Positions 3,026 to 32,368 of a stretch of DNA of 64,000 nt are shown here, piece after piece. The stretch spans positions 77 through 64,076 of the IMG/VR virus record IMGVR_UViG_3300037088_000771; one strand, 5' to 3'. The notes beneath the pieces were generated by a model. That model had not been told where the DNA came from. It worked only from the letters and a program-made list of their open reading frames with translations, and did no database searches. Every line of letters starts with the position of its first letter. The first letter of the stretch is position 1. This DNA comes from a virus (Duplodnaviria > Caudoviricetes). The position numbers were made by a program, and so were the translations under genes.

Positions 3026-3050
3026 TAGGTATTTAAATAAAACCGTAACT

Positions 3051-3470
3051 ATGAAAAAGTTTTTAACATTAATTTTATTGCTTGTATCATTGACAGCATT
3101 TTCTCAGAAACAACATGAGAAATTTTATCAAAACATTGCTGCTGAACGCATGCATGGAAGAACTGAAGTTGTATTAGATGACAGAACTCGTGCAGATATT
3201 GTGACTGACACATTTGCAATTGAAGTTGAATTTGCTCATAAATGGGCAGAAAGTATTGGACAATCATTACATTATGCACACAAACTTCATAAAAAAGCAG
3301 GTATTGTATTAATTACTGACGGAAGAAAAGACGATAGATTTGTTCAGATATTAATGCCTGATGCAGTTGAACTTGGCATTACCGTTTGGGTTATATTCAT
3401 TAATGATAATAGCTGGGGAAAGGTTGAACCACTCATACAAAAAGACAGTACAGTGAAATTTATTTACTAA
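3051..3470 (+). CDS. signal-peptide protein with PD-(D/E)xK-like motif
   Basis: MKKFLTLILLLVSLTAFSQ leader; RADIVTD..AIEVEFAHKWAESIGQSLHY. Confidence 0.6.
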   Translation: MKKFLTLILLLVSLTAFSQKQHEKFYQNIAAERMHGRTEVVLDDRTRADIVTDTFAIEVEFAHKWAESIGQSLHYAHKLHKKAGIVLITDGRKDDRFVQILMPDAVELGITVWVIFINDNSWGKVEPLIQKDSTVKFIY

Positions 3471-5240: not shown

Positions 5241-5590
5241 GGGGGTGTTTTGGCTTTGACAGCATGGCAGACTGGTATAGTAAGCAAGTGGTAGTTGAAT
5301 CGGACTACGTTAAAAAGGTTCAAAACAACAAACGCAGAAGACATAATGTCTATTCCAACTTCTCTCACGAGAGGTAACGCAGTATTCGCAAGAAACGCTG
5401 AACTTGCAATCGCAGCATAGGAAGCAAAAAAATCGGCAAAGAACCTTCCCGCTTGAGGAAGCAAAAGACAAGACGGCTTGTTGATGTTCCGCAAACATCA
5501 GATATTTCGCTGAATCAGAAAATTCAGATAAACTTGTAGAAAACATATTGATCGCATGTTTGGACCGGGGTTCGACTCCCCGCACTTCCA
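5241..5590 (+). ncRNA. ssrA: tmRNA
   Basis: 5' gggggtg..tttgac; 3' ggaccggggttcgactccccgcacttcca; G3:U pair; tag ORF 5334-5420 AEDIMSIPTSLTRGNAVFARNAELAIAA*. Confidence 0.92.
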
Positions 5591-5610
5591 CTAACAAACA
5601 AAAATGAGCA

Positions 5611-12692: not shown

Positions 12693-13141
12693 TGAATGTC
12701 TTAAACATTATAAAAGAGGAAATTAATAAATTTGTTTCTGAATCATATGAAGATGTCGGGATTGATTACATTATGAATGATTCAAAGAAATTAAAGGATT
12801 ATCAAGATTATAAGAATAAAAAAATTATTAATGGTATTACATATCTTAATTTTGCAAGCACATTTGATGACGATTGGTATATTTGGAATACAATAAAAGC
12901 ATTTGATAATATTGACGGTACTGAAGTTGGAAATGTTTCATACGGCAAAGAAAAAGAAAATGATATATTAAAAGCAACGATAGATGTAAGACCAGATAAA
13001 AGAAGATTGGGCATTGGTAGTAATATGTATAAATGGATTGAAGAATTAACAGGCGAAAAACTTTACCCCGATGCGCCTCATAGTCAATTGGCTGCAAAAT
13101 TTTGGAATAGTCCAAAAAGAACTTTTGGTTATGATAAATAA
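12692..13141 (+). CDS. GNAT-family acetyltransferase
   Basis: VRPDKRRLGIGS motif A; AAKFW. Confidence 0.75.
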   Translation: MNVLNIIKEEINKFVSESYEDVGIDYIMNDSKKLKDYQDYKNKKIINGITYLNFASTFDDDWYIWNTIKAFDNIDGTEVGNVSYGKEKENDILKATIDVRPDKRRLGIGSNMYKWIEELTGEKLYPDAPHSQLAAKFWNSPKRTFGYDK

Positions 13142-13192
13142 AATAATTTAAAAATAACTGTATTTTTATTTGGAAATGTCGTATTTATAAAA

Positions 13193-13200
13193 TACATTTG
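13193..13200 (+). promoter_or_regulatory. Bacteroidota sigma-A -7 element (TAnnTTTG)
   Basis: tacatttg with upstream tttg; same box at 24625, 32987, 36832 and before several other genes. Confidence 0.65.
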
Positions 13201-13238
13201 TCACCTGAAGTATTAACAAATAGATAAAGAACAAAACA

Positions 13239-13331
13239 ATGAGAACGTTTGGTACATATTATTACGGTAAAAAATCTTATAAGAAACAGCTTATAGGAAT
13301 CGGGAATACTATGACCAAAGGTAAAAGATAA
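13239..13331 (+). CDS. Tyr/Lys-rich attenuator leader peptide (30 aa)
   Basis: MRTFGTYYYGKKSYKKQLIGIGNTMTKGKR*, followed by a terminator and Lys/Tyr tRNAs. Confidence 0.8.
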   Translation: MRTFGTYYYGKKSYKKQLIGIGNTMTKGKR

Positions 13332-13360
13332 CTTTCGTACTTTTTTTCATAATTAAGATT

Positions 13361-13389
13361 AACCCGATTCGCAAGATCGGGTTTTTTTT
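13361..13389 (+). terminator. attenuator terminator
   Basis: aacccgattc-gcaa-gatcgggtt plus T run; 5' arm complementary to gaatcggg in the leader (13297-13304). Confidence 0.85.
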
Positions 13390-13518
13390 GCATAAAAACG
13401 CATATTCTTGCATAAAAACGCATAGATTATGAAAAACAGGTAGAAAATGACATATTTTATGAAAAACAGTTATTTGTTATGAAAAACGTTTAAAAAACGA
13501 TAGTTTTTGTGAAAAACG
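13389..13518. repeat. short degenerate repeats (tgcataaaaacgcata x2; t(a/g)tgaaaaac x4)
   Basis: Visible between the terminator and the first tRNA-Lys. Confidence 0.7.
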
Positions 13519-13523
13519 GGTTT

Positions 13524-13596
13524 GCGCTCGTAACTCAGTTGGTAGAGTAACGGACCTTTAATCCGTGAGTCAAGGGTTCGACCCCCTTCGGGCGCA
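13524..13596 (+). tRNA. tRNA-Lys(TTT), C33 variant
   Basis: acgga-ccTTTaa-tccgt. Confidence 0.85.
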
Positions 13597-13649
13597 CTGA
13601 GGTAGAATTTAGGTATTTTCTGTATCCCTGATAACTGAAATATCCACAC

Positions 13650-13721
13650 CCACTCGTAGCAAAGTGGCTATGCTACCGCCCTTTAAGCGGACTCACGTAG
13701 GTTCGATTCCTACCGAGTGGA
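13650..13721 (+). tRNA. tRNA-Lys(TTT), C33 variant
   Basis: ccgc-ccTTTaa-gcgg; acceptor ccactcg/cgagtgg. Confidence 0.8.
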
Positions 13722-13726
13722 CAACT

Positions 13727-13808
13727 GGAAATGTTGGGTGCTGGAATACCCAAGAGTCTGTAAAACTCCCGCTTCGGCATGTTGGTTCGAGTCCAACCAT
13801 TTCCACCA
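13727..13808 (+). tRNA. tRNA-Tyr(GTA)
   Basis: gagt-ctGTAaa-actc; variable arm; CCA. Confidence 0.88.
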
Positions 13809-13813
13809 AATTT

Positions 13814-13899
13814 GGGATTGCGCTATCGTGGGAGAGATAGGCTGGTCTGTAAAACCAGTGCCATTGGCTGAGTGGGTTCGAATCCCACCAATCCCACCA
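13814..13899 (+). tRNA. tRNA-Tyr(GTA)
   Basis: ctggt-ctGTAaa-accag; CCA. Confidence 0.88.
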
Positions 13900-13901
13900 A
13901 T

Positions 13902-13973
13902 ACATTCGTAGCAAAACGGTTATGCTCCCGCCCCTTAAGCGGACAGACGTGGGTTCGACCCCCACCGAATGCA
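13902..13973 (+). tRNA. tRNA-Lys(CTT), C33 variant
   Basis: ccgc-ccCTTaa-gcgg; 1:72 mismatch. Confidence 0.75.
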
Positions 13974-24000: not shown

Positions 24001-24581
24001 ATGTTGAAGGAAAAAGAAATTTTGTTAATAATAAAGGTAAAAAAACAACTGTTGGTGTTAATATAAAGACGCTTCCTGACTCACTTCATGCGCTATATAT
24101 CAATCAAAAATATAAGAAAGATTATAAAACAATTAGTGGTTTTGGACAATATGGTGAAAATGCTGGAATTGCACGAACTAAAGACAATAGAAACATTTTT
24201 ATTAACAGAGAAGGCAAACCAGATATTACTGGTGTTGACCCCGAAAAAATAAAAAATATGAACAGTAATGTAAAAGCAACATATTTTAATACAATAAACG
24301 GTACTAATTTTAGCGACATTTATGAATCACTAACAAATAATCAAACAAATGTACTTTTTGCAACTATACCAAATAGTGGTGGTTATGCATTTGTTGACAA
24401 TAAAGGAAAACCAACAATAAAGATTAAAAATTTACAAATGCTCAAAGATCAATATGGTGAAACTACTGTTAACGACATAATTAAAACTACGAAAAAAATG
24501 TTAAGTGGTGAATTTAAAGAAAATTATTCTCCGTTACATTCACTTATAAATGAAGAACTTGTAAATTATTTTCAAAATTAG
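21033..24581 (+). CDS. large protein with ~10 WG-like ~60-aa repeats
   Basis: Repeated RA.Y.N..FGT.Y..VG.F..YG..IA.A....FIN.EG.P; start ATG 21021 or 21033. Confidence 0.8.
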   Translation: MSLLSESKRFNDFTPEEKRQIFNVFTQSYVKATGASWDERKFYSRAGEWLFFGDPTGFITLRPQKSGYYKLTGVAGSPKAIMRAMQELTATNYPIWGMLTQDLANMLIKRFGFRMPNRLEGFIISKLISNNVFGNVEFKRNPDGSITFNYADVGEATKVFVGSKEYYRKVRMDVVKRVFTGKPAANEEINEDVLDEKRAVENYFEDSFKLVSEYLRRYGYENTYASFRKTANTTFINRSNSYSTPTGFYMYPFKNYAEKIAASTDMQTFMKVFPFTPDSKFCFLFTIANYDNLLSSLNPDVEKIHGYVRKIKEIYGKKKPAIATLCDLYFTPEGFTSRAGYSHKNEFQKFWIFLYEIAFELRNNNAKYEPDKYESNYQERPSSITIIANDIGLAGFIDDGCQSIIHGGEPCQGVLLSNVRETLSNLRIVPIYQKYDAPLPIDNPDAPTGNSEENRNKYQKYLAGKLQARSVSILGNEYQSAIKNRMPFIVFFNDYTPLYIDRDGNKTVRGLDAEKIIATDRNADEYDDTMKTKRTAYINSLFNTKYDEVRPFGKYGGDIAFAIGTDGTYSFINKEGKPDITDVDILKITDSKTRAIYLNQIRGEDIYDSVGSFGEFGGELARAQTLEGTTVYINKAGDSDISKIDVTKVTDSSSRALIINQKLGKKIYSNVGDFNKFGQGIAVAYSEKTGGQIFINTEGRPSIKGVKIISINDSTLRAVYFNQKFHKKTFSFIGNYDKYGAGIAIGKYVSSGDLVFINTLGQPALDQVDIDKIDDTNIRALYLNQKFGTDFTSVGIFDRIGDNVAFAVREGGEVVFIDREGKPNMGNVNIHDISDSHIRAVYVNKLLNTDYTHIGRFGELGGDVAFATNPENLTYEFINKEGKKDTTGVELDKIRDAATRAAYFNQKYGTKYESVGDFSTYGENAAKAFEPEKGRFFINREGVPDTSGVDINELDDSYDRATVYNQRFGTNYDEIGKFNVYGKGIAVANDVEGKRNFVNNKGKKTTVGVNIKTLPDSLHALYINQKYKKDYKTISGFGQYGENAGIARTKDNRNIFINREGKPDITGVDPEKIKNMNSNVKATYFNTINGTNFSDIYESLTNNQTNVLFATIPNSGGYAFVDNKGKPTIKIKNLQMLKDQYGETTVNDIIKTTKKMLSGEFKENYSPLHSLINEELVNYFQN

Positions 24582-24673
24582 TGTAAAAAAAATGTAAAAA
24601 AGTTGCAGATAACAAAACTTTATTTACCTTTGCAGAGTATTTAAATGAAAACGAACTTATATTTTTAAAACAA

Positions 24674-24808
24674 ATGAAAACGTACAGGACAATATCAGAA
24701 GATTTCACATCGACCTCAAGTCGTAGTGGAAATGGTATATGCTGTTCAATTTTTACAGGCAGAAATAATGCAGATACGGGTTCTGGTTTTAAAGACATCA
24801 TTGACTGA
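24674..24808 (+). CDS. Thr/Ser/Cys/Asn/Ile/Phe/Gly/Arg-rich attenuator leader peptide (44 aa)
   Basis: MKTYRTISEDFTSTSSRSGNGICCSIFTGRNNADTGSGFKDIID*, followed by a terminator and a matching tRNA array. Confidence 0.8.
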   Translation: MKTYRTISEDFTSTSSRSGNGICCSIFTGRNNADTGSGFKDIID

Positions 24809-24830
24809 TAATTTTAAAACTTTATAAAAG

Positions 24831-24862
24831 AGAACCCGATTCGCAAGATTCGGGTTTTTTTG
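24831..24862 (+). terminator. attenuator terminator
   Basis: aacccgattc-gcaa-gattcgggtt plus T run; 5' arm agaacccg complementary to cgggttct in the leader (24777-24784). Confidence 0.85.
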
Positions 24863-24874
24863 TTCTTTGCATAA

Positions 24875-24945
24875 GTCGGAATAGTTCAGGGGTAGAACGT
24901 CTGTGTGGTATTCAGGCAACATCGGTTCGAATCCGATTTTCGGCT
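24875..24945 (+). tRNA. tRNA-Thr(GGT), divergent
   Basis: tctgt-gtGGTat-tcagg; T arm atcgg-ttcgaat-ccgat. Confidence 0.65.
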
Positions 24946-25038
24946 CAAATATAAGTCTTATAGCTTATAAACACCGTATATAAGGTTTGCATCTTATGTA
25001 CAACACTGTAAGGTGTTCATTGACATGTTGGAATTTTT

Positions 25039-25113
25039 GCACAGATGGTCGAGTGGTCAAAGGCAACGGTCTGCAAAACCGTACAACCGTGGGTTCGAAT
25101 CCCACTCTGTGCT
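25039..25113 (+). tRNA. tRNA-Cys(GCA)
   Basis: acggt-ctGCAaa-accgt; U73. Confidence 0.92.
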
Positions 25114-25239
25114 CAAACATTACTTAGTAGTCGTATGCTATTGGACACTTTGGGCGATTGAACTCCAGAGTCAACAGAGATAGACAGACAAAAGTGTAGT
25201 GGGTGTGTGTATCGTACAATCCGCAATGGCACACCAAAT

Positions 25240-25315
25240 GGGTTGGTAGTGCCATAATGGTTAAAACGGCTGTCCGTTAAACAGCGAGATGTAGGTTCGA
25301 CTCCTACCCGACCCG
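25240..25315 (+). tRNA. tRNA-Asn(GTT), C33 variant
   Basis: gctgt-ccGTTaa-acagc; G73. Confidence 0.8.
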
Positions 25316-25321
25316 CAAAAT

Positions 25322-25395
25322 TGTCTCTTAGCTCAGTTGGTTAGAGCACTTCTCTGATAAGGAAGGGGTCGTCAGTCCAAGTCTGACAGAGACAA
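25322..25395 (+). tRNA. tRNA-Ile(GAT)
   Basis: cttct-ctGATaa-ggaag. Confidence 0.88.
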
Positions 25396-25458
25396 CGAGC
25401 AGACCGTTAGAATTTCATAGGCACTGAATTAGAAGTGGAGAGCATAGAAATTCAAAAT

Positions 25459-25539
25459 AGTGATGTGGATGAGTGGTATAGTCACCAGTCTGATAAACTG
25501 GCTCGCAAGAGGACGTGGGTTCAAATCCCACCGTCACTA
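25459..25539 (+). tRNA. tRNA-Ile(GAT), long variable arm
   Basis: ccagt-ctGATaa-actgg; ctc-gcaa-gag arm. Confidence 0.85.
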
Positions 25540-25573
25540 CAAATCGCAGACGTGCGATCTTATGTTGCAACAT

Positions 25574-25662
25574 AAAACGATTACTTATTGTTAGCATAGC
25601 TGGCAATGCTGCTCTGTGAATGGGTGAAGGTGAGTTCAAGTCTCACAGGTAAGAGTCGTTTT
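25574..25662 (+). ncRNA. tRNA-like element, anticodon undetermined
   Basis: D-like arm agca..tgct, T arm gtgag-ttcaagt-ctcac, extended acceptor stem. Confidence 0.45.
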
Positions 25663-25666
25663 GTAT

Positions 25667-25753
25667 GGAGAGTTGTCAGAGTGGTCTAATGAGGCGGTCT
25701 TGAAAACCGTTGGGCGGGTAACCGCCCCGTGGGTTCGAATCCTACGCTCTCCG
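25667..25753 (+). tRNA. tRNA-Ser(TGA)
   Basis: gcggt-ctTGAaa-accgt; long arm; G73. Confidence 0.92.
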
Positions 25754-25857
25754 CAAATTACGAATGGGAAAGTAGTTAGCGGTACTTAGTTGGGATAATA
25801 CTAAGTCAAGATGCACTGACCACTATTATCGAGTATAATAAAAAGTTCGTAATATTT

Positions 25858-25951
25858 GGATGGTTAAGCAGCTATATTGGAATGGCGACATGTCCTGAAA
25901 ACATGGTTTCGGTTTTAATAACTGGATGGGGGTCAGGTCCTCAATCATCCG
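25858..25951 (+). tRNA. tRNA-Ser(TGA), divergent C33 variant
   Basis: catgt-ccTGAaa-acatg; long arm; G73; atypical T loop. Confidence 0.6.
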
Positions 25952-26015
25952 CAATGGTCTTTGGGCGTTCTCCCGTGTCCAAGGATAGCAAATACAAAAT
26001 GTAAACGGGAGTCAT

Positions 26016-26102
26016 GGAGAGTTGACAGAGTGGTTATTGTAACAGTCCGCTAAACTGTGGGTGACGAAAGTTGCCCCGTAGGTTCGAACCCTACACTCTC
26101 CG
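26016..26102 (+). tRNA. tRNA-Ser(GCT), C33 variant
   Basis: acagt-ccGCTaa-actgt; long arm; G73. Confidence 0.85.
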
Positions 26103-26338
26103 CAAAGTCAAGCGAAATGGGTTATCATCACTTGACCTATGCATCTGAAATTGTGGTCATGACACTATGAGGATGTAAAAGTTCTGGGTTGCATAAGACG
26201 CTGCCCTAATGTTCAGCAGGAAGTTTTGTACTTGCATCTGGCAATGCGAATAGTACTCTATGGACTCCGAGACATATTAAAGATAGTTGCAATGCTGTCG
26301 GGAATCGTGAGTATAAGGCTCACACCAGAACTTAATTT

Positions 26339-26410
26339 GAGGACTTAGCTGAGTTGGTTTAGCGATGCTCTGAAAAGGCATAGAGACAGGTTCAATCCCT
26401 GTAGTCCCCA
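26339..26410 (+). tRNA. tRNA-Phe(GAA)
   Basis: atgct-ctGAAaa-ggcat. Confidence 0.8.
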
Positions 26411-26459
26411 CGCAGTCGGTTCGCACTATACGTAAAATGAATGAGTAGGAAGTGCACTT

Positions 26460-26535
26460 GGGGAGATAGTTTACAATGAGCAAAACGTCTGCTATTCGAA
26501 GAGCAGATAAAGAGGTTTAAATCCTTTTCTCTCCG
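26460..26535 (+). tRNA. tRNA-like gene with expanded (8-nt) anticodon loop
   Basis: Acceptor ggggaga/tctctcc; tctgct-attcgaag-agcaga; degenerate T loop. Confidence 0.5.
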
Positions 26536-26540
26536 CAACT

Positions 26541-26613
26541 GGTGTCGTAGCTCCAATGGTAGAGCGCAAGCCTGAAGAGCTTGGCGTTGGTGGTTCGAGT
26601 CCACCCGATACCA
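26541..26613 (+). tRNA. tRNA-Phe(GAA)
   Basis: caagc-ctGAAga-gcttg. Confidence 0.9.
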
Positions 26614-26701
26614 CTCCTTCCTTCTAAACAGGGTAATCACCCTATCAGGTCGCCAGATTGCAAATGACCTCTCTACGAAAGTAAGCAGAAATCTGGCAAA
26701 C

Positions 26702-26777
26702 GCAGAAGAAGCTCATGTGGTCGAGTGTCAGCCTTCCAAGCTGAATGTAGCGGGTTCGAATCCCGTCTTCTGCTCCA
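26702..26777 (+). tRNA. tRNA-Gly(TCC)
   Basis: tcagc-ctTCCaa-gctga; U73-CCA. Confidence 0.9.
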
Positions 26778-26778
26778 T

Positions 26779-26850
26779 GCGAAATATAGCTTAATTGGTA
26801 AAGTGTCTGGCTTCCACCCAGAAGAAGCGGTTCGAACCCGATATTTCGCA
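26779..26850 (+). tRNA. tRNA-Gly(TCC)
   Basis: tctgg-ctTCCac-ccaga. Confidence 0.75.
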
Positions 26851-27133
26851 CAAAACACTTGTAATAAAGAATATTTTCATTATCTTTGATAAAATTTATA
26901 GCTATGAAAGAAGGATGGAAATACGTTTTATTAGAGTATAATTACATCACCTACTGTCAAGGTACTGCAGATCGCAATCACGGACAAGCATTAATACACT
27001 GTCCAGAAGACTGCAGTTTCAATAACATTAGATCAACATTATTTAATGCTAAACATCGTGAAGGCGATTACGAAATAGACATTAAGAGTGTAAAAGATGT
27101 AACCATCGATTGGGGTAAAAGTTATTCCTAAAC

Positions 27134-27170
27134 AGTGACGTAGCTAAATGGTGACGGCAGTTGTCTTTAT
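27134..27170 (+). pseudogene. 5' half of a tRNA gene
   Basis: agtgacg-ta-gct-aaatggtgac-ggc-a-gttgt-ct; breaks off just before an endonuclease gene. Confidence 0.5.
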
Positions 27171-27204
27171 TTAATTTCACAGTATTTATAGTAAAATATT
27201 AAGT

Positions 27205-27951
27205 ATGGATAATGAAAATTTTGAGAAAAAAAATATTACACTAAACATTGAATGGCTACAAATTGACGGTAAATATAAATGTCCACATTGTGGTTTGAAC
27301 TATTCGAAAATGGGAATATGCTCTCACATTAACATAAAGCATTTGAATGGTAAACATAATAATAATTTGGTTTCCCATAATAAAATGGTGAGTGACGGAA
27401 AATTGCCAAGAAACAAAAATCAATATGAATTAGCAAGAGAACGTGGTGAAGAATATACCTTATCAGTAGAATCGAGAAAAAAAATGAGTAAATTAAAAAC
27501 TGGACAAAATGTTAGCAAGGAGACTCGTGAAAAAATATCTAAAACACGAAGCAAATATTTGGAAGAAATTGGTGGCGGTGGATTTACTAAGATTAAATGG
27601 TATAAAATAAACAACATAAAGAATGTGGAGTTTATTGTAAGAGGCAAATGGGAATTAGAATTAGCCGAAATACTGAATAAGGAAAAAATATATTGGATTA
27701 GAAAACAGTATCTTACATACACGAAGAATGAAATCACCAAGACTTATTGTCCAGATTTTTATCTTCCAGATTATAATATCTACATCGAAGTTAAAGGATA
27801 TTATTCTCAAATTGATAAGGAAAAAATTGCGCTCGTTCTCGAAAAAAATAATATTAATTTACAGATGGTATTTGATAAAGACTTATCTGAAATAAGGAAG
27901 ATTGGAATTAAAAAATATTGGGATGTATCTGCTTTGTCTTATACACAATAG
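27205..27951 (+). CDS. homing endonuclease (Zn finger, NUMOD3-like repeats, PD-(D/E)xK)
   Basis: CPHC..H...H; S.E(S/T)R.K(M/I)S repeats; YCPDFYLPDYNIYIEVKG. Confidence 0.85.
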   Translation: MDNENFEKKNITLNIEWLQIDGKYKCPHCGLNYSKMGICSHINIKHLNGKHNNNLVSHNKMVSDGKLPRNKNQYELARERGEEYTLSVESRKKMSKLKTGQNVSKETREKISKTRSKYLEEIGGGGFTKIKWYKINNIKNVEFIVRGKWELELAEILNKEKIYWIRKQYLTYTKNEITKTYCPDFYLPDYNIYIEVKGYYSQIDKEKIALVLEKNNINLQMVFDKDLSEIRKIGIKKYWDVSALSYTQ

Positions 27952-27997
27952 AAACAGTAATGGTCACATGTGGGTTCGACTCCCACCATCCCAACCA
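27919..27997 (+). tRNA. atypical D-arm-less tRNA-Ile(TAT)
   Basis: Acceptor tgggatg/catccca+ACCA; ttgt-ctTATac-acaa; normal T arm; no D arm. Confidence 0.6.
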
Positions 27998-28000
27998 AAT

Positions 28001-28075
28001 GCATCGGTAGCTCAGTGGTAGAGCAATTGACTGTTAATCAATTGGTCGCAGGTTCGACCCCTGCCCGGTGCGCCA
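28001..28075 (+). tRNA. tRNA-Asn(GTT)
   Basis: attga-ctGTTaa-tcaat; G73-CCA. Confidence 0.93.
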
Positions 28076-28403
28076 ATTAAAACACTGACACTATTTATTA
28101 TAGTATGTAAAAATAATGTTAGTGTTTTAATTAAAAGACAAATATGGAATCTAAAAGTGTTGCTTGGGAAATCGAATATAAAATAACTGGTAGCGATAGA
28201 ATTTATATAATGAGAATAGACCTTCACTTTAATAAAGTAAAAAATATTGCCAAATGGTTCAGGATGACACACAGTGGAAAAAATGGTCAAAAGGATTGTG
28301 AATTTATTAATGCAAAAATAATTGAAGAAAATGTTTAAATATCCAAAATTAACAGAAAAGCATTTTTTCTGGATTAGAATTATAAAACTTTTAAATAAAA
28401 AGG

Positions 28404-28757
28404 ATGAAAAAATATCTCTTTGTAGGCGAAGAAAGAAGTGAAATGGCAAAAAAAATGAATGTCACATGGGTTGACAAACGTTTATGTGCTGGTCATCTTT
28501 CCAAAGCAGTTGAAGCAATAGGAATCGATTGGAGTGAATGTGCCTTTAAAAACGTTTTTGAAGACGATATTAACGAGATCAGGACTTTTGAAGGAGTAGT
28601 TATAGCAATGGGAAGAAAGGTGGAGAGAGAGCTTAAAAAGGAGCAAATAAAGCATGAATTCATTTATCACCCAGCAACGAGAGGAACTGTAAGAATTATT
28701 GAAAATTATAAAGCACACGTGAAAGAACAAATAGCACACATAGTAACGCCAGAATAA
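28404..28757 (+). CDS. uracil-DNA glycosylase-like fold protein
   Basis: LFVGE...VIAMG...HPA motif pattern. Confidence 0.45.
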   Translation: MKKYLFVGEERSEMAKKMNVTWVDKRLCAGHLSKAVEAIGIDWSECAFKNVFEDDINEIRTFEGVVIAMGRKVERELKKEQIKHEFIYHPATRGTVRIIENYKAHVKEQIAHIVTPE

Positions 28758-28821
28758 CTTTAATTGGTAGAGTGCCTGATTCGTATTCAGGGGGTTGCGG
28801 GTTCGAATCCTGTTTCTGGCT
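28748..28821 (+). tRNA. tRNA-Thr(CGT)
   Basis: cctga-ttCGTat-tcagg. Confidence 0.88.
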
Positions 28822-28833
28822 CAAAGAATAAAT

Positions 28834-28917
28834 GCCGATATCGCATAGTGGTCGATTGCACCGGTTTTGTAAACCGGATGGTAAAACGCATCGGGGGTTC
28901 GAATCCCTCTATCGGCT
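28834..28917 (+). tRNA. tRNA-Thr(TGT), long variable arm
   Basis: ccggt-ttTGTaa-accgg. Confidence 0.88.
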
Positions 28918-29153
28918 CAAATTTTAAATTAAATTATCATGGACAAAATGCCAAGTGAAAATCATGAAGAAAAGTTTCTGAAGAAACTTCAATCAAGAGC
29001 AAAAAAGTTTGTTGATCTAACACCTTATTTTATAAAAGTTGCAATTGTCACAATAATTGTGTTTCTTTGCTCAATGTTTGTGTGGTATAGTGTCATGAGA
29101 CCCGACCCAAGCAAACCAGTAATTGAAAACATTATTGATCAATTTAAAAAGAA

Positions 29154-29705
29154 ATGAGCAAAAGAGAAATTAGAAAAAACAAAGTTCCACACGAATTCTT
29201 CATAACAAAAGGATTTGGTACAGATGCTTATGAAAAACACGCAGGTGCTTATCACATGGCTCTTTACGATGCTGGGATTGCAAATTTTAACATCCAGACA
29301 TATAGTTCAGTACTATCACCAAATGCTGAGTTACTTTCTCTTGATGAAATTGATCTTGACGATTATGGAAGTGAAATGAAATGCATAATGTCTTGTGAAT
29401 TTGGAGAATTTGGTGAATATATCAGCGCAGGTATTGCTTACGCATGGATGTATAAGGATGAAAATTTCGACAAGAAATTTGGCGGATTGGTTTGTGAAGT
29501 TCATGGAAAATTCGCAATTGATATGCTCGAAGAAAGACTCTATTTGGTTTTAAGTAATTTATTTGAAAAGACTTATAAAAACCAAGGATTATTTCTGGGA
29601 GAACCACAGCTAATGACACAAGGTGGTTCAGTACCAAACAACATAAGATACGGATGCGCACTGGTTTCAATGTGCTTTGTAAATTATGAAATAATTGAAA
29701 AATAA
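29154..29705 (+). CDS. pyruvoyl-dependent arginine decarboxylase
   Basis: VP..FF.T.G.G...AL.DAGI.NFNI..YSSV cleavage motif; GLVCE. Confidence 0.85.
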   Translation: MSKREIRKNKVPHEFFITKGFGTDAYEKHAGAYHMALYDAGIANFNIQTYSSVLSPNAELLSLDEIDLDDYGSEMKCIMSCEFGEFGEYISAGIAYAWMYKDENFDKKFGGLVCEVHGKFAIDMLEERLYLVLSNLFEKTYKNQGLFLGEPQLMTQGGSVPNNIRYGCALVSMCFVNYEIIEK

Positions 29706-29707
29706 TT

Positions 29708-29779
29708 GCCCCTATAGTACAACGGATAGTACAGAGGTCTTCTAAACCACGGATTGGGGTTCGATTCCCCGTAGGGGTA
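29708..29779 (+). tRNA. tRNA-Arg(TCT)
   Basis: Loop ctTCTaa; D loop with A20. Confidence 0.88.
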
Positions 29780-29793
29780 CTAAAAAATAATAA

Positions 29794-30042
29794 ATGAGAA
29801 CTGTAATTTGTACGAAATGTAACGAAGTAATTGCAGTACCAGATCATCAAGATTTTGTGATCTGCTGTAATGAAGTAATTTATGCACCTTATGAAAAAGA
29901 TGTTGATATTTTCTTTAATGAATTATCAAATCCTTCTAAACCCAATGAAGCACTGAAAAAAGCTGCAACACGATATAAAAAACGAACTGATGAAACACAC
30001 AATTGTGAAAATGAAACACCCGATGGTGTATGTCGAAAATAA
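29794..30042 (+). CDS. Zn-finger protein with DUF1778/TacA-like C-terminal motif
   Basis: CTKC..CC, then DIFFNELSNPSKPNEALKKAATRY. Confidence 0.55.
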   Translation: MRTVICTKCNEVIAVPDHQDFVICCNEVIYAPYEKDVDIFFNELSNPSKPNEALKKAATRYKKRTDETHNCENETPDGVCRK

Positions 30043-30366
30043 AAAAGAATTTACAATGGAAGGTTATGCCTTTCTTGACGAAACAGGAAATACAATCATA
30101 ATTGTGTATGGAGAAGGACGCAGAGACGACATGGACAAGTATTTAACTAATGATGGCGATTTAATTAATATCAAATATAAAATTATTGATTTATGTCAAA
30201 AGCAAGAGTTGTTATAACGGTTGAAAGAGAAAAAGAATTTACCAATGAAGAAGTTAAAGAAATAATGGAAGACATTAAAGCAAGACTTCAAGGACATTTT
30301 ACTAAAACAATTGAACCGTTAAAGACTGCAAGTTTGAATATTGGTTATGAAAAAGTAAATTAACAT

Positions 30367-30438
30367 GCTCCCATAGTATAATGGATAGAATTGGGGTTTC
30401 CTAAACCTTAGATTCGGGTTCGATTCCCGATGGGAGTA
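30367..30438 (+). tRNA. tRNA-Arg(CCT)
   Basis: ggggt-ttCCTaa-acctt. Confidence 0.88.
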
Positions 30439-30653
30439 CTAAGAATAAATAAAATGATTGACTTTTCAAAAATGACACCTGAATTATATAAAAAAGTTCA
30501 GAACACAAGAGTGACGGTTGAAAGAATAAAAAGAGAAGTTGCAATGCTTAGATTTGATGACGATTATACTGAAGAATGTGAAGAAGAAATCAAAGCATTA
30601 AGCGAAAAATGTAAAGAATTTGATGAATTTTTAAAAGAATATGAAATATAAAT

Positions 30654-30726
30654 GCCTTTGTAGTTCAATGGATAGAACGGGAGTCTTCGAAACTCCTTGT
30701 TGCGGGTTCGACTCCTGCCAAGGGTA
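30654..30726 (+). tRNA. tRNA-Arg(TCG)
   Basis: ggagt-ctTCGaa-actcc. Confidence 0.9.
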
Positions 30727-30905
30727 CAAAAAACCCCAATAATTGGGGTTTATAACACAATAAAAAGTAATGAAAACACGTAAAATAGATTATAAATCAA
30801 AAAAGTGGTTACAAGGATTAGAAAAGGTACGTAAGCAAAACGAATTACTGTCTGAACAATCAAAACCCGATACTCAGAAAATGAGAAAAAGGTTTACAAT
30901 ATAAT

Positions 30906-30979
30906 GCTCTCATGGCGCAACTGGATAACGCACCACGCTACGAACGTGGAGATTGGGGGTTCGAATCCCTCTGGGGGTA
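30906..30979 (+). tRNA. tRNA-Arg(ACG)
   Basis: ccacg-ctACGaa-cgtgg. Confidence 0.9.
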
Positions 30980-31770
30980 CTAAAGTTTTAAAATGACTAA
31001 AGATAGTGAACTTGATATCTTGACTGATTTTTTACTTGATTGGAGTAAAGCAAATGATTTTTCAATAGTTTTACCAAACTGTGATGATGAAGATAAGATA
31101 ATCGATTTTATAAACATTAACTTGAAAACAAAAACTATTTATATCGGTGAATTAGGTATTGAAGAACTGTTAACTGAAGTTGGATAATTTTAATTAAAAT
31201 TGTATATTATGGAAACTGAAAAAGGTTGGGTCAATATTCACATTGACGTTTACACAAAGAAACTATTTATTTCTAATCATCCTTACCCAAGTAAAGAAGA
31301 AGCCGAAAAAGGTATCTTCATTGGCGGGACAATTGAAAAAGTAGGATGTTTTGAAATTGAATATACTAAACTACCTTCTCCTAATGAGACGTTTAAAAAT
31401 GCAAAGATAAATGAAAATTAAAACTAAAAATATGAAGTATCTCAACACATCGTAATTACCATTCTTGCTATGGTAAATTGCGATTGAAATGTTATTTAGA
31501 CAAACAAAAAAGCAAGAAAAGCTGGAACTCGTAAAAGATGATGCATATTACAGAAAGCATCCGAAAATTATGAGACTTTGGTTTGTGGAAATCACGTCTA
31601 CGGATAGTGAAATCCAAAAGTTTTACGTTAGTGCCATGACTCAATTTGATGCCTATGAAAAGGCTGATGGTTACAAGTATTGGCTTGCTGACGAAAGACT
31701 TAAAAATAAGTTGAGTACTTTTAGGCTAATGCCTTAAAGGATTAAAATTGCAGGGGAAACTCTGCAACAT

Positions 31771-31842
31771 GTGTCAGTAGTTTAATTGGATAGAACAGCT
31801 TCCAGACGGTTGCTTGTGAGGGTTCAAGTCCCTTCTGATACA
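31771..31842 (+). tRNA. tRNA-like gene with degenerate anticodon arm
   Basis: Good acceptor gtgtcag/ctgatac, D and T arms; mismatched anticodon arm gcttccagacggttgc. Confidence 0.55.
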
Positions 31843-31894
31843 CTAAAATAAAAAAATTCTTTCATGATTGCATAATTATAACTATATTTGCAGT

Positions 31895-32287
31895 ATGAAT
31901 ACAGATTTAAAAGGTGAACATTGTGAATATATTGCAGTACTTCGATTAATGAAAGCTGGGTATATTTTATCGAGACCAGTCAATAAATGTAGATATGATC
32001 TAATTGCTGATGACAGAAAAGGTCATTTACTAAGAGTGCAAGTAAAAACAGCAAACGTTAAAAAAAATTATATTGAGTTTAGAACAGCATCGGTTTCTAA
32101 GAGTGGTCATAAACAATATACCAGCGATGAAATTGATTACTTTGCTGTGGTTGAAATAGAAACTGAAAACGTATATATTATTGATGTTAAAGAATGTTCG
32201 AAAGAAACACAAAGATTACGAATTACCAATCCATTAAATAATCAAAAAAAATGCATATTATTTGCAAAAGATTTTTTGCTGGAATAA
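31895..32287 (+). CDS. PD-(D/E)xK homing endonuclease (group I intron-associated family)
   Basis: KGE..E...RYDLI.D...RVQVKT...Y..DEIDYF. Confidence 0.85.
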   Translation: MNTDLKGEHCEYIAVLRLMKAGYILSRPVNKCRYDLIADDRKGHLLRVQVKTANVKKNYIEFRTASVSKSGHKQYTSDEIDYFAVVEIETENVYIIDVKECSKETQRLRITNPLNNQKKCILFAKDFLLE

Positions 32288-32293
32288 CAACAT

Positions 32294-32368
32294 GCGAGAT
32301 TAGCTCAGTGGTAGAGCAGGAACTTGCCAAGTTTCAGGTCGAGAGTTCAAATCCCATATCTCGCTCCA
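32294..32368 (+). tRNA. tRNA-Gly(GCC)
   Basis: ggaac-ttGCCaa-gtttc; U73-CCA. Confidence 0.88.

Follow-up and report, generated by a model that had tools for sequence, protein, structure and literature searches.

A predicted multi-amino-acid leader-peptide attenuator upstream of a phage tRNA block, with parallel copies matched to other blocks

Within a 64,000-nucleotide stretch of Caudoviricetes DNA (IMG/VR record IMGVR_UViG_3300037088_000771; hereafter the window), we identified an element that is very probably a ribosome-mediated (leader-peptide) transcription attenuator of the trp/thr/ilv type, controlling a phage tRNA transcription unit (module D; Table 1). This reading draws on the anatomy of the locus, the composition statistics of its leader, its conservation, the co-variation of leaders with tRNA blocks and the complementary segments of the transcript; we infer that the leader is translated, which way the switch works, how far the regulated transcript extends and what triggers it in nature. 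In this giant phage a tRNA set is probably made only when the matching codons are read slowly. Leader-peptide attenuation is, to our knowledge, a textbook mechanism of amino-acid biosynthetic operons and of a few synthetase operons; in the present case, judging from sequence, it appears to regulate the tRNA genes themselves, in a virus and in parallel copies that track the tRNAs following them.

As we envisage the mechanism, transcription would start from a Bacteroidota-type promoter at ~24.63 kb and a ribosome would translate the 44-codon leader. With all Thr, Ser, Cys, Asn, Ile, Phe, Gly and Arg aminoacyl-tRNAs plentiful, the ribosome would cross the 22 control codons and region 2, and with region 2 covered the terminator (24828-24861) would fold and halt transcription 14 nt before the first tRNA. 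Should any one of these eight tRNA kinds be scarce, the ribosome would stall within 24704-24769 and leave region 2 free to pair with the terminator 5' arm, so that RNA polymerase would enter the tRNA genes. The net effect would be negative feedback on decoding capacity, the tRNA block being made on demand. The same device, fitted with other control codons, would operate before a Lys/Tyr block in the window, and before Pro/His/Gln and Asp/Glu/Val/Leu/Ala/Trp blocks in relatives. Candidate causes of stalling are host anticodon nucleases, host shut-off and codon-usage mismatch, the first of which was the trigger favoured in a preliminary description of this locus and was drawn from the field of phage-tRNA counter-defence.

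The anatomy reported in that description was recovered almost entirely. The TAnnTTTG box placed at 24625 lies at 24625-24632 with a TTG 19 nt upstream, the proposed 44-codon ORF (24674-24808) begins with ATG and ends in two stop codons, and the intrinsic terminator claimed at 24831-24862 is a strong hairpin with a U-run at 24828-24861. The 22 consecutive codons said to be limited to eight amino acids are indeed so limited (codons 11-32). The leader segment reported as able to pair with the terminator 5' arm (24777-24784, 8 nt) is the exact complement of 24831-24838. We assign the upstream element as a promoter on the basis of its position and its conservation, the element being kept in genomes G001, G002, G005 and L036. 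Between region 2 and the terminator, folding predicts a hairpin over the stop codon that would juxtapose regions 2 and 3, and this hairpin is retained despite altered sequence in G005 and L036. Shine-Dalgarno motifs are unused (2 of 46 long ORFs, compared with 6.4% of random 16-mers) and the regions upstream of ORFs are A-rich, which fits a host and promoter of the Bacteroidota type. The order of promoter box, short ORF, terminator and tRNAs recurred in all nine modules examined. Among the 20 listed sequencing runs that contain this DNA, none is recorded as RNA.

Table 1. Predicted features of modules D and C, in window coordinates
Feature	Position	Strand	Description
Putative promoter, module D	24602..24632	+	TTG (-33-like), 19-nt spacer, TAnnTTTG (-7-like), Bacteroidota type
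Leader ORF, module D	24674..24808	+	ATG, 44 codons, TGA then TAA
Control-codon run, module D	24704..24769	+	Codons 11-32, 22 consecutive, only Thr/Ser/Cys/Asn/Ile/Phe/Gly/Arg
Region 2 (putative antiterminator strand within the D ORF)	24773..24785	+	Complementary to terminator 5' arm
Hairpin over stop codon, between region 2 and terminator	24786..24820	+	Predicted by folding
Intrinsic terminator (regions 3 and 4), module D	24828..24861	+	Core stem 24832-24857, U7 run 24855-24861
tRNA block D	24875..32368	+	Thr, Cys, Asn, Ile x2, Ser x3, Phe x2, Gly x2, Asn, Thr x2, Arg x4, atypical 'Leu(cag)', Gly
Putative promoter, module C	13169..13200	+	TTTG, 20-nt spacer, TAnnTTTG
Leader ORF, module C	13239..13331	+	30 codons; codons 7-16 (13257-13286) are 8/10 Tyr or Lys
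Terminator, module C	13361..13389	+	U8 run; region 2 at ~13297-13305 within ORF
tRNA block C	13524..13972	+	Lys(ttt) x2, Tyr(gta) x2, Lys(ctt)

Downstream of the module D terminator, ARAGORN found 21 tRNA genes (24875-32368), interspersed with several ORFs (endonuclease-like, PvlArgDC). The claim that every tRNA with a readable anticodon in this block belongs to the leader's eight amino acids held for 20 of the 21 and failed for one, the 73-nt 'Leu(cag)' at 31771-31843, which is atypical. The first of these genes, a tRNA-Thr (24875), starts 14 nt past the terminator with no promoter box between the two, and no strong plus-strand terminator was found between 24855 and 37818. The block contains further TAnnTTTG boxes (26881, 30549 and 31883) which, should they act as internal promoters, would let the distal tRNAs escape the attenuator.

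The composition of the leader was compared with a background set of 681 ATG-initiated ORFs of 20-50 aa drawn from all six frames. The D run (at least 22 own-class residues in a 44-aa peptide; P ~7e-8 given the phage's own amino-acid frequencies) ranked 1/681, and of the 43 residues that follow the initiating Met, 34 are among the block's eight amino acids (binomial P=4e-7). Comparable own-class runs in the leaders of modules A (P = 3.7e-8) and B (P = 6e-6) each ranked 1/681 for their class, as did the eight own-class codons in the ten-codon window of the C leader (iid P=8e-5), whose control run is interrupted by Gly and Ser. At the level of individual codons, the synonymous codons listed in the preliminary description are present in the D leader, and the broad sampling read into them exceeds codon usage only marginally and in D only (P=0.04). 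Cognate codons occur in this leader for 14 of the 16 anticodon species of block D, where resampling gave 11.8 on average (P=0.04), with none for the Arg(tcg) tRNA. Synonymous-codon tuning is at most marginal (P=0.04 and 0.07 for D) and was not significant in the other modules.

A second module within the window, module C, repeats the arrangement before a Lys/Tyr block, and its terminator shares an identical 17-nt core with that of module D (2 matches against 0.08 expected; 2 reached in 0 of 100 shuffles), which indicates that the arrangement at D is not due to chance. AT-rich phage DNA yields many small ORFs and hairpins from which a match could be picked afterwards, the boundaries of the block's amino-acid set were chosen in the preliminary description, and the TAnnTTTG box by itself occurs in the window no more often than expected (94 times, with 102 expected). 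Even so, leaders rank first of the 681 ORFs in all four classes, random pairing would assign all seven independent leaders to their cognate blocks with a probability of only ~3e-5 ((1/4)^4 x (1/5)^3), and the region is more conserved than the adjacent coding sequence. An origin by chance is refuted at the level of the tests run, and the probability we leave to it is negligible.

Homologous modules allowed the match between leaders and tRNA blocks to be followed across genomes. Modules C and D are present in the close relatives G001, G002 and G005, D also in L036, and the same three close relatives carry modules A (Pro/His/Gln) and B (Asp/Glu/Val/Leu/Ala/Trp). In the five genomes compared, the ORF, terminator and antiterminator segment of module D were all kept, and mean pairwise nucleotide identity reached 84% across the leader ORF and 82% across the terminator region, whereas the final 600 nt of the upstream gene averaged 56%. 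The tRNAs of G006, a distant relative of 321 kb, are grouped differently, and the composition of the three leaders in that genome has shifted to match: the leader of its Arg/Leu/Gln block has 12 consecutive Leu/Arg/Gln codons, covering 6/6 anticodon species, and those of its Lys/Ile/Val and Tyr/Pro/Ser/Trp/Glu blocks match each block. The cognate block scored best for all seven leaders (scan scores of 3.7-10.3 for cognate blocks and no more than 2.7 for non-cognate ones), so the proposal of a multi-amino-acid attenuator mirroring its tRNA array withstood the refutation test posed in the preliminary description and found support in conservation and composition, as it did in fold geometry. The correspondence has exceptions, as ARAGORN calls neither a Val nor an Ala tRNA in block B of G002, although Val and Ala codons persist in that block's leader, and the control run of the G006 b4 leader is interrupted by His and Ala. 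Other tRNA groups have no leader, namely tmRNA/Leu/Leu/Met and Ser/Met/suppressor in the window and blocks 1 and 3 of G006.

The same comparisons bear on whether the small ORFs instead have peptide products with a function of their own, for example a small regulator or the Ser/Thr/Cys-rich precursor of a modified peptide, with a coincidental tRNA match and an ordinary terminator as the hairpin. Such a function would account for the richness of the D leader in Ser, Thr and Cys and for the good conservation of the leader peptide among close relatives, but what is conserved is the nucleotide sequence, non-coding parts included, and paralogous leaders have a common architecture with no similarity of peptide. 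The D leader peptide had no match in Pfam or NCBIfam, seven independent leaders match their own blocks, and the close spacing of terminator and tRNA with no intervening promoter box also argues against a peptide product, an explanation that we consider very unlikely.

Attenuation of the kind favoured here depends on an alternative pairing, which the RNA is predicted to be able to form. The duplex between region 2 and the terminator 5' arm of module D has a predicted dG of -14.4 kcal/mol, a value matched by 4 of 300 dinucleotide-shuffled versions of the ORF. In all nine modules (seven of them independent), an ORF segment 3' of the control codons is complementary to the module's own terminator 5' arm (dG -10 to -20 kcal/mol), and the shuffles doing as well numbered 18, 4, 2, 1, 24, 0, 9, 3 and 1 of 300 each, that is, nine or fewer in 7 of the 9. 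In module D of G001, where the 5' arm has changed, it pairs perfectly with region 2 (12 bp) and more weakly with the 3' arm, and the pairing with region 2 is the minimum-free-energy fold.

The geometry was tested in seven modules with co-transcriptional fold models in which the ribosome footprint was masked. The probability that region 3 was paired upstream was 0.44-0.93 for A-site positions at almost every control codon, and with the ribosome over region 2 it dropped to 0.02-0.66, the drop starting over the final few codons of each control run. As modelled, then, the alternative structures have the geometry expected of attenuation, in which a ribosome on the control codons frees the antiterminator and a ribosome that has passed them blocks it. 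Equilibrium folding of D with the full terminator included gave a noisy picture, and a trp-like 1:2 'off' state was predicted in A and C only.

Without a ribosome, the antiterminator was already favoured at equilibrium in five of the seven modelled modules (D, 0.89; B, 0.93; the three G006 modules, 0.67-0.74), a result that would suit the same RNA switch run by an opposite or otherwise different logic. The leader might sense general translation activity rather than the supply of particular tRNAs, for example being on by default early in infection, until ribosomes load, and off once translation is vigorous, with the codon match a by-product of block-specific tuning. A sensor of that kind needs no block-specific codons, however, yet each of the seven leaders scored best with its cognate block and leader content shifts with tRNA grouping in G006; we regard this logic as improbable, though less so than a peptide function.

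The predicted codon-specific attenuation of tRNA genes shares several features with the enterobacterial leader attenuators, which include trpL, hisL, pheL and leuL as well as multivalent examples such as thr (Thr + Ile) and ilvGMEDA/ilvBN (Ile, Val, Leu). In both, a short ORF, here of predicted translation, lies between promoter and intrinsic terminator, and its control codons represent two or more amino acids. On the 3' side of those codons is an antiterminator strand, here predicted, that excludes the terminator when paired, and the position of the ribosome, here modelled, selects the structure. The phage modules differ in that they would control tRNA genes rather than biosynthetic enzymes, closing a loop on tRNA supply and not amino-acid supply, that up to eight amino acids are represented per leader, that the device is phage-encoded with several parallel copies partitioning the amino acids, and that only some modules are predicted to form a 1:2 'off' hairpin. 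The Rfam Thr, Trp, Phe, His and Leu leader families did not reach their gathering scores (Thr_leader 19.1 vs 55, Trp_leader 16 vs 41, Phe_leader 15 vs 55), the sub-threshold matches covering the terminator part only.

T-box riboswitches and the pheST-type attenuator precede aminoacyl-tRNA synthetase genes, and like the phage modules they use transcription attenuation to report tRNA charging or supply and control a component of the translation apparatus. The T-box differs in binding one uncharged tRNA by a single specifier codon without a ribosome, whereas the phage sensor is a multi-codon ORF, predicted to be translated, and the output is tRNA genes. The agreement of downstream anticodons with leader codons could nevertheless reflect direct pairing of those codons with uncharged tRNA anticodons, with no ribosome involved. 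No Rfam leader or riboswitch family scored at gathering threshold anywhere in the window, the T-box covariance model included, and with the E-value limit relaxed to 10 the two leader regions (24560-24880 and 13140-13530) likewise gave no match to the T-box or any other riboswitch family. The control codons stand in one frame from the ATG to the stop codons in all homologues, and a T-box reads one specifier codon rather than 8-22, leaving direct sensing exceedingly unlikely.

A cellular parallel is the trn operon of Anabaena sp. PCC 7120, a long, silent tRNA array induced by translational stress and repressed by TrcR (PMC8421152, PMC10272220). As we propose for the phage, an accessory tRNA array is there kept off until translation is impaired; the Anabaena system is cellular, not of a phage, and it is controlled by a promoter-binding protein repressor (PMC10272220). 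The terms 'attenuat' and 'leader' do not occur in PMC8421152, nor do 'attenuat' and 'leader peptide' in PMC10272220. Phage tRNAs have been presented as countermeasures to tRNA-cleaving host defences (PMC10264068, PMC11464382), and these reports, as far as their available parts extend, offer a motive for replacement tRNAs while their topic is tRNA function and not transcription control. The literature searched yielded no published account of leader-peptide attenuators gating phage tRNA arrays.

Counting modules A and B of the relatives, we propose that 19 amino acids are divided among four gated regulons. A more far-reaching reading, which we advance tentatively and hold to be rather doubtful, would see a complete modular decoding-capacity homeostat, with ~55 tRNA genes sorted by amino acid into attenuator-gated regulons and four tripwire leaders monitoring 19 amino acids. 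It would have evolved as an inducible counter-defence in which removal of particular tRNAs by a host anticodon nuclease, or by the phage's own host shut-off, turns on only the matching block, and the C33 anticodon loops of several tRNAs would form its second half. If attenuation is confirmed, large phages would regulate tRNA arrays by demand rather than constitutively. The leader would then read out the expected shortage, which bears on the 50-year-old question of the purpose of phage tRNAs. In uncultured jumbo phages, such leaders would offer a simple signature from which transcription units and tRNA identity could be predicted. The modules would also amount to compact natural sensors that take several inputs and respond to decoding speed, and might be put to use as reporters.

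Two further points concern tRNA annotation in the window. An extra tRNA-like gene with an anticodon loop of 8 nt lies at 26460-26535. For the last tRNA of block C, we rejected the ARAGORN name Leu(taa) as the gene aligns with the Lys(ctt) genes of three relatives, and the Lys/Tyr make-up of the C leader agrees with this re-reading as Lys.

Module D, which heads the tRNA block between 24875 and 32368 (block D), carries every element that the preliminary description had listed for it, from the promoter box, leader ORF and terminator to the 8-nt complement and the 22-codon run. The segment 24777-24784 (8 nt) is the exact complement of 24831-24838, and codons 11-32 of the leader encode only Thr, Ser, Cys, Asn, Ile, Phe, Gly and Arg. 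With the phage's own amino-acid frequencies as the chance model, under which these eight amino acids account for 42% of residues, a run of at least 22 own-class residues in a 44-residue peptide has a probability of ~7e-8. A set of 681 ORFs with an ATG start and 20-50 codons was collected in six frames from the window and 52 kb of a relative, and within it the D leader obtained the top score in its class (7.2), equalled by its orthologue in the relative (7.2), with the best other ORF at 3.9; chance was weighed as an explanation for the composition and rejected.

Features of the window with their positions
Feature	Position	Strand	Remarks
tmRNA gene	5241-5591	+	Rfam, 112 bits
Module C promoter, TTTG-N20-TAnnTTTG			upstream of the C leader ORF and of the terminator core at 13361
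Module C leader ORF	13239-13331		30 codons
Repeated words behind module C	13395-13520		module-C terminator to first tRNA-Lys
Fifth block-C tRNA	13903-13972	+	Lys(ctt)
Module D TAnnTTTG box	24625-24632	+	TTG 19 nt upstream
Module D leader ORF	24674-24808	+	ATG start, 44 codons, two stop codons at end
Module D terminator	24828-24861	+	strong hairpin, then seven U; tRNA-Thr starts 14 nt further on
14-nt word	25020-25033		directly 5' of tRNA-Cys
tRNA-like gene	26460-26535		Rfam, 35 bits
Phage endonuclease I-like protein gene	27205-27951		among block-D tRNAs
Pyruvoyl-dependent arginine decarboxylase homologue	29154-29705		among block-D tRNAs, adjoins Arg tRNAs
'Leu(cag)' tRNA	31771-31843	+	73 nt
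PD-(D/E)XK endonuclease gene	31868-32287		among block-D tRNAs
tRNA with CTA anticodon	36715-36789	+	last in tRNA region

All tRNAs of the array with a readable anticodon had been assigned to the eight leader amino acids, which held for 20 of the 21 called in block D and failed for 'Leu(cag)' at 31771, the only block-D tRNA outside the class and one with no counterpart there in the close relative G001. This gene is of class-I size and atypical, with C33. Arg(tcg) of block D has no cognate codon in the D leader, and isoacceptor-level design is not claimed, synonymous-codon tuning being marginal in D (P=0.04 and 0.07) and showing no effect in the other seven modules. The hairpin plus T-run scan detected no strong + strand terminator between 24855 and 37818, whilst block D itself contains candidate internal promoter boxes, so that the distal Arg tRNAs may depend only partly on the attenuator. 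The 14-nt word next to tRNA-Cys recurs 5' of the first block-B tRNA-Asp, and 5' of tRNA-Cys in relatives, and might serve as a processing signal or internal promoter.

The window has just two copies of the 17-nt D terminator core, one at 24833 and one at 13361 (0.08 copies expected; 0 of 100 shuffles gave two). The second copy belongs to module C, a Lys/Tyr module that a separate earlier note had pointed out and whose leader ORF and terminator core are both present. Tyr or Lys fills 8 of 10 consecutive codons of the C leader, which ranked first of the 681 ORFs (iid P=8e-5), and the module is followed by tRNAs for Lys, Lys, Tyr and Tyr and then by a fifth gene named Leu(taa) by ARAGORN. This name was rejected, as alignment to three relatives identifies the gene as Lys(ctt) with C at position 33, which also lends support to a separate earlier note on C33 tRNAs. 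Both attenuator hairpins were missed by a simple terminator scanner because of an internal bulge, and were recovered by the hairpin plus T-run scan. Several spaced TGAAAAAC-type words, three of them exact copies, occupy the stretch from the module-C terminator to the first tRNA-Lys; G001 and G005 share this pattern, a candidate protein-binding or processing element.

Relatives were sought by a 17-mer scan of viral contigs, which returned 13 loci, six of them from related tRNA-rich phages; the other seven (L004, L007, L008, L010, L011, L013 and L015) were unrelated coding DNA without tRNAs and were dropped. The phages collection yielded matches of tRNA length only and no relative, no tRNA was found in L031/G007, and none in the stretches examined of L038 and L039. 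Among the relatives, G001 is a complete genome of 362,763 bp, to which Rfam gave 55 tRNA matches. G000, G001, G002 and G005 have a syntenic tRNA region, which runs from block A (Pro, His, Gln) and block B (Asp, Glu, Val, Leu, Ala, Trp) through a third group (tmRNA, Leu, Leu, Met), block C (Lys, Tyr) and block D (the eight amino acids) to a sixth group (Ser, Met, amber suppressor). The four block classes plus Met make up all 20 amino acids without overlap. The window's own A and B leaders are missing because the contig begins inside a tRNA. Block A of the relatives is preceded by a promoter box, a 24-codon ORF with 7-8 Pro, Gln and His codons in succession, and a terminator, and block B by an ORF of 30-32 codons, in which Asp, Glu, Val, Leu, Ala and Trp codons form runs of 10-13, and then a terminator; these leaders bear out a separate earlier prediction for the DNA upstream of the window. 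The B leader of G002 retains Val and Ala codons, although no Val or Ala tRNA was called in its block B, and some tRNA groups of the window and of G006, a distant relative, have no leader.

G006, reached via homologues of the 1198-residue protein encoded upstream of the D leader (38% identity), is a complete phage of 320,934 bp whose 32 tRNAs are grouped otherwise than in the window and its close relatives. Three of its five tRNA blocks lie directly behind a terminator, and each such terminator is preceded by a small ORF. The leader before Arg(acg), Leu(aag), Leu(tag), Gln(ctg), Gln(ttg) and Leu(taa) has 12 successive Leu, Arg and Gln codons, 11 of which are read by the block's six tRNAs, with all six anticodons represented. 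Val, Ile or Lys takes up 9 of 12 codons in the leader ORF of the block Lys, Lys, Ile, Val, Ile, and 13 of 15 codons before Tyr, Pro, Pro, Ser, Trp, Ser, Glu come from those five amino acids. When each leader was scored against every block of its genome by a window-scan binomial, the cognate block scored best for all seven leaders (G001, 4/4; G006, 3/3), with scores of 3.7-10.3 for cognate and <=2.7 for non-cognate blocks; random pairing would give this result with a probability of ~3e-5. In these two genomes, leader composition follows the leader's own block, a match that the preliminary description had asked to be checked in related phages. G006 also contains a conserved stem-flanked RNA element behind a promoter box (L032/L033, reverse complement, about 3040-3160 and 13720-13830), which precedes block 1, a block with no leader ORF, and also lies upstream of the b2 leader.

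Each of the nine modules (seven independent) has, 3' of its control codons, an ORF segment (region 2) complementary to the 5' arm of its own terminator, with duplex energies of -10 to -20 kcal/mol. Dinucleotide shuffles of each ORF did as well in 18, 4, 2, 1, 24, 0, 9, 3 and 1 cases per 300, and in a cross matrix of duplexes the cognate pairs were strongest or near-strongest, with the exception of the weak C modules. The D terminator 5' arm of G001 differs from that of the window at two positions; it forms a perfect 12 bp with region 2, its fit to the 3' arm is poorer, and the minimum-free-energy fold of this module is the antiterminator.

Equilibrium folding of the whole leader with the complete terminator and ribosome masks gave an irregular, noisy profile for D, and was replaced by a co-transcriptional model in which the nascent transcript is cut just before the 3' arm and a 30-nt ribosome footprint is masked at each codon. 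The predicted probability that the 5' arm pairs upstream was 0.65-0.93 among the four modules from the window and G001 with the A site on nearly all control codons, dropping to 0.02-0.66 when region 2 comes under the ribosome; for the three G006 modules the modelled values were 0.44-0.85 vs 0.15-0.46. The predicted drop starts over the last few control-run codons in each module. A ribosome on the control codons would leave the 5' arm free for upstream pairing, and the geometry in this model is that of trp/his/thr-type attenuation. A trp-like 1:2 hairpin, which would enforce termination without translation, was predicted for A and C and not clearly for B, D and the G006 modules.

Conservation was measured as mean pairwise nucleotide identity over five genomes (G000, G001, G002, G005 and L036). 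The D leader ORF reached 84%, the stretch from stop codon to U-run 82% and the promoter region 77%, against 56% in the final 600 nt of the protein gene upstream. Changes in the control run among relatives, read from the alignment by eye, fell mostly within the eight amino acids (6 of about 8 distinct changes). Overall, composition, complementary segments, fold models and conservation support the core of the preliminary description, an attenuator with codons mirroring the array, and ribosome-mediated leader-peptide attenuation of a phage tRNA array is very probable. Two further explanations were weighed and rejected: a T-box, the leader RNA having no match to an Rfam leader or T-box family, and small genes that serve to encode a peptide, the D and other leader peptides having no match to a Pfam or NCBIfam family.

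The thr and ilv operons of enterobacteria are governed by multivalent leader-peptide attenuators, and the modules of the window appear to work in the same manner, but control tRNA genes rather than enzymes and belong by sequence to no Rfam leader family. Literature searches over the full main texts of papers found no description of attenuator-controlled tRNA arrays. The nearest functional analogue found in print is a silent tRNA array of Anabaena, reported as induced by translational stress (PMC8421152, PMC10272220) and controlled by a protein repressor, TrcR (PMC10272220). PMC8421152 contains neither 'attenuat' nor 'leader', and PMC10272220 neither 'attenuat' nor 'leader peptide'.

The -33/-7 promoter pattern before all modules, which we take to be of Bacteroidota type, together with missing Shine-Dalgarno motifs, points to a Bacteroidota-like host. 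Shine-Dalgarno motifs precede 2 of 46 long ORFs, vs 6.4% of random 16-mers, and regions upstream of ORFs are 47% A. Within the window, the TAnnTTTG box was not enriched (94 found vs 102 expected) and the full -33/-7 pattern was not significant (6 found vs 3.6 expected; 11 of 100 shuffles reach 6).

The window is nearly all of a 64,076-bp uncultured-virus contig of ~20% completeness (CheckV), with a G+C content of 33.6%, and the sequencing runs containing its DNA are peat and freshwater metagenomes, with no RNA run recorded among them. ARAGORN placed 45 tRNA genes, grouped by amino acid, and a single tmRNA gene in the window, every one of them on the + strand; Rfam backs these calls and adds one tRNA-like gene, and its 39 matches at gathering score in the window include no riboswitch or leader family. 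The tRNA-like gene at 26460 has an 8-nt anticodon loop, with a four-base anticodon according to ARAGORN, and G001 and G006 each carry one similar gene. The phage-encoded tmRNA, which lies between blocks B and C without a leader module, is conserved in G001, G002 and G005. The tRNA with the CTA anticodon, an amber suppressor termed 'Pyl' by ARAGORN, ends the tRNA region and is conserved in this position in G001, G002 and G006.
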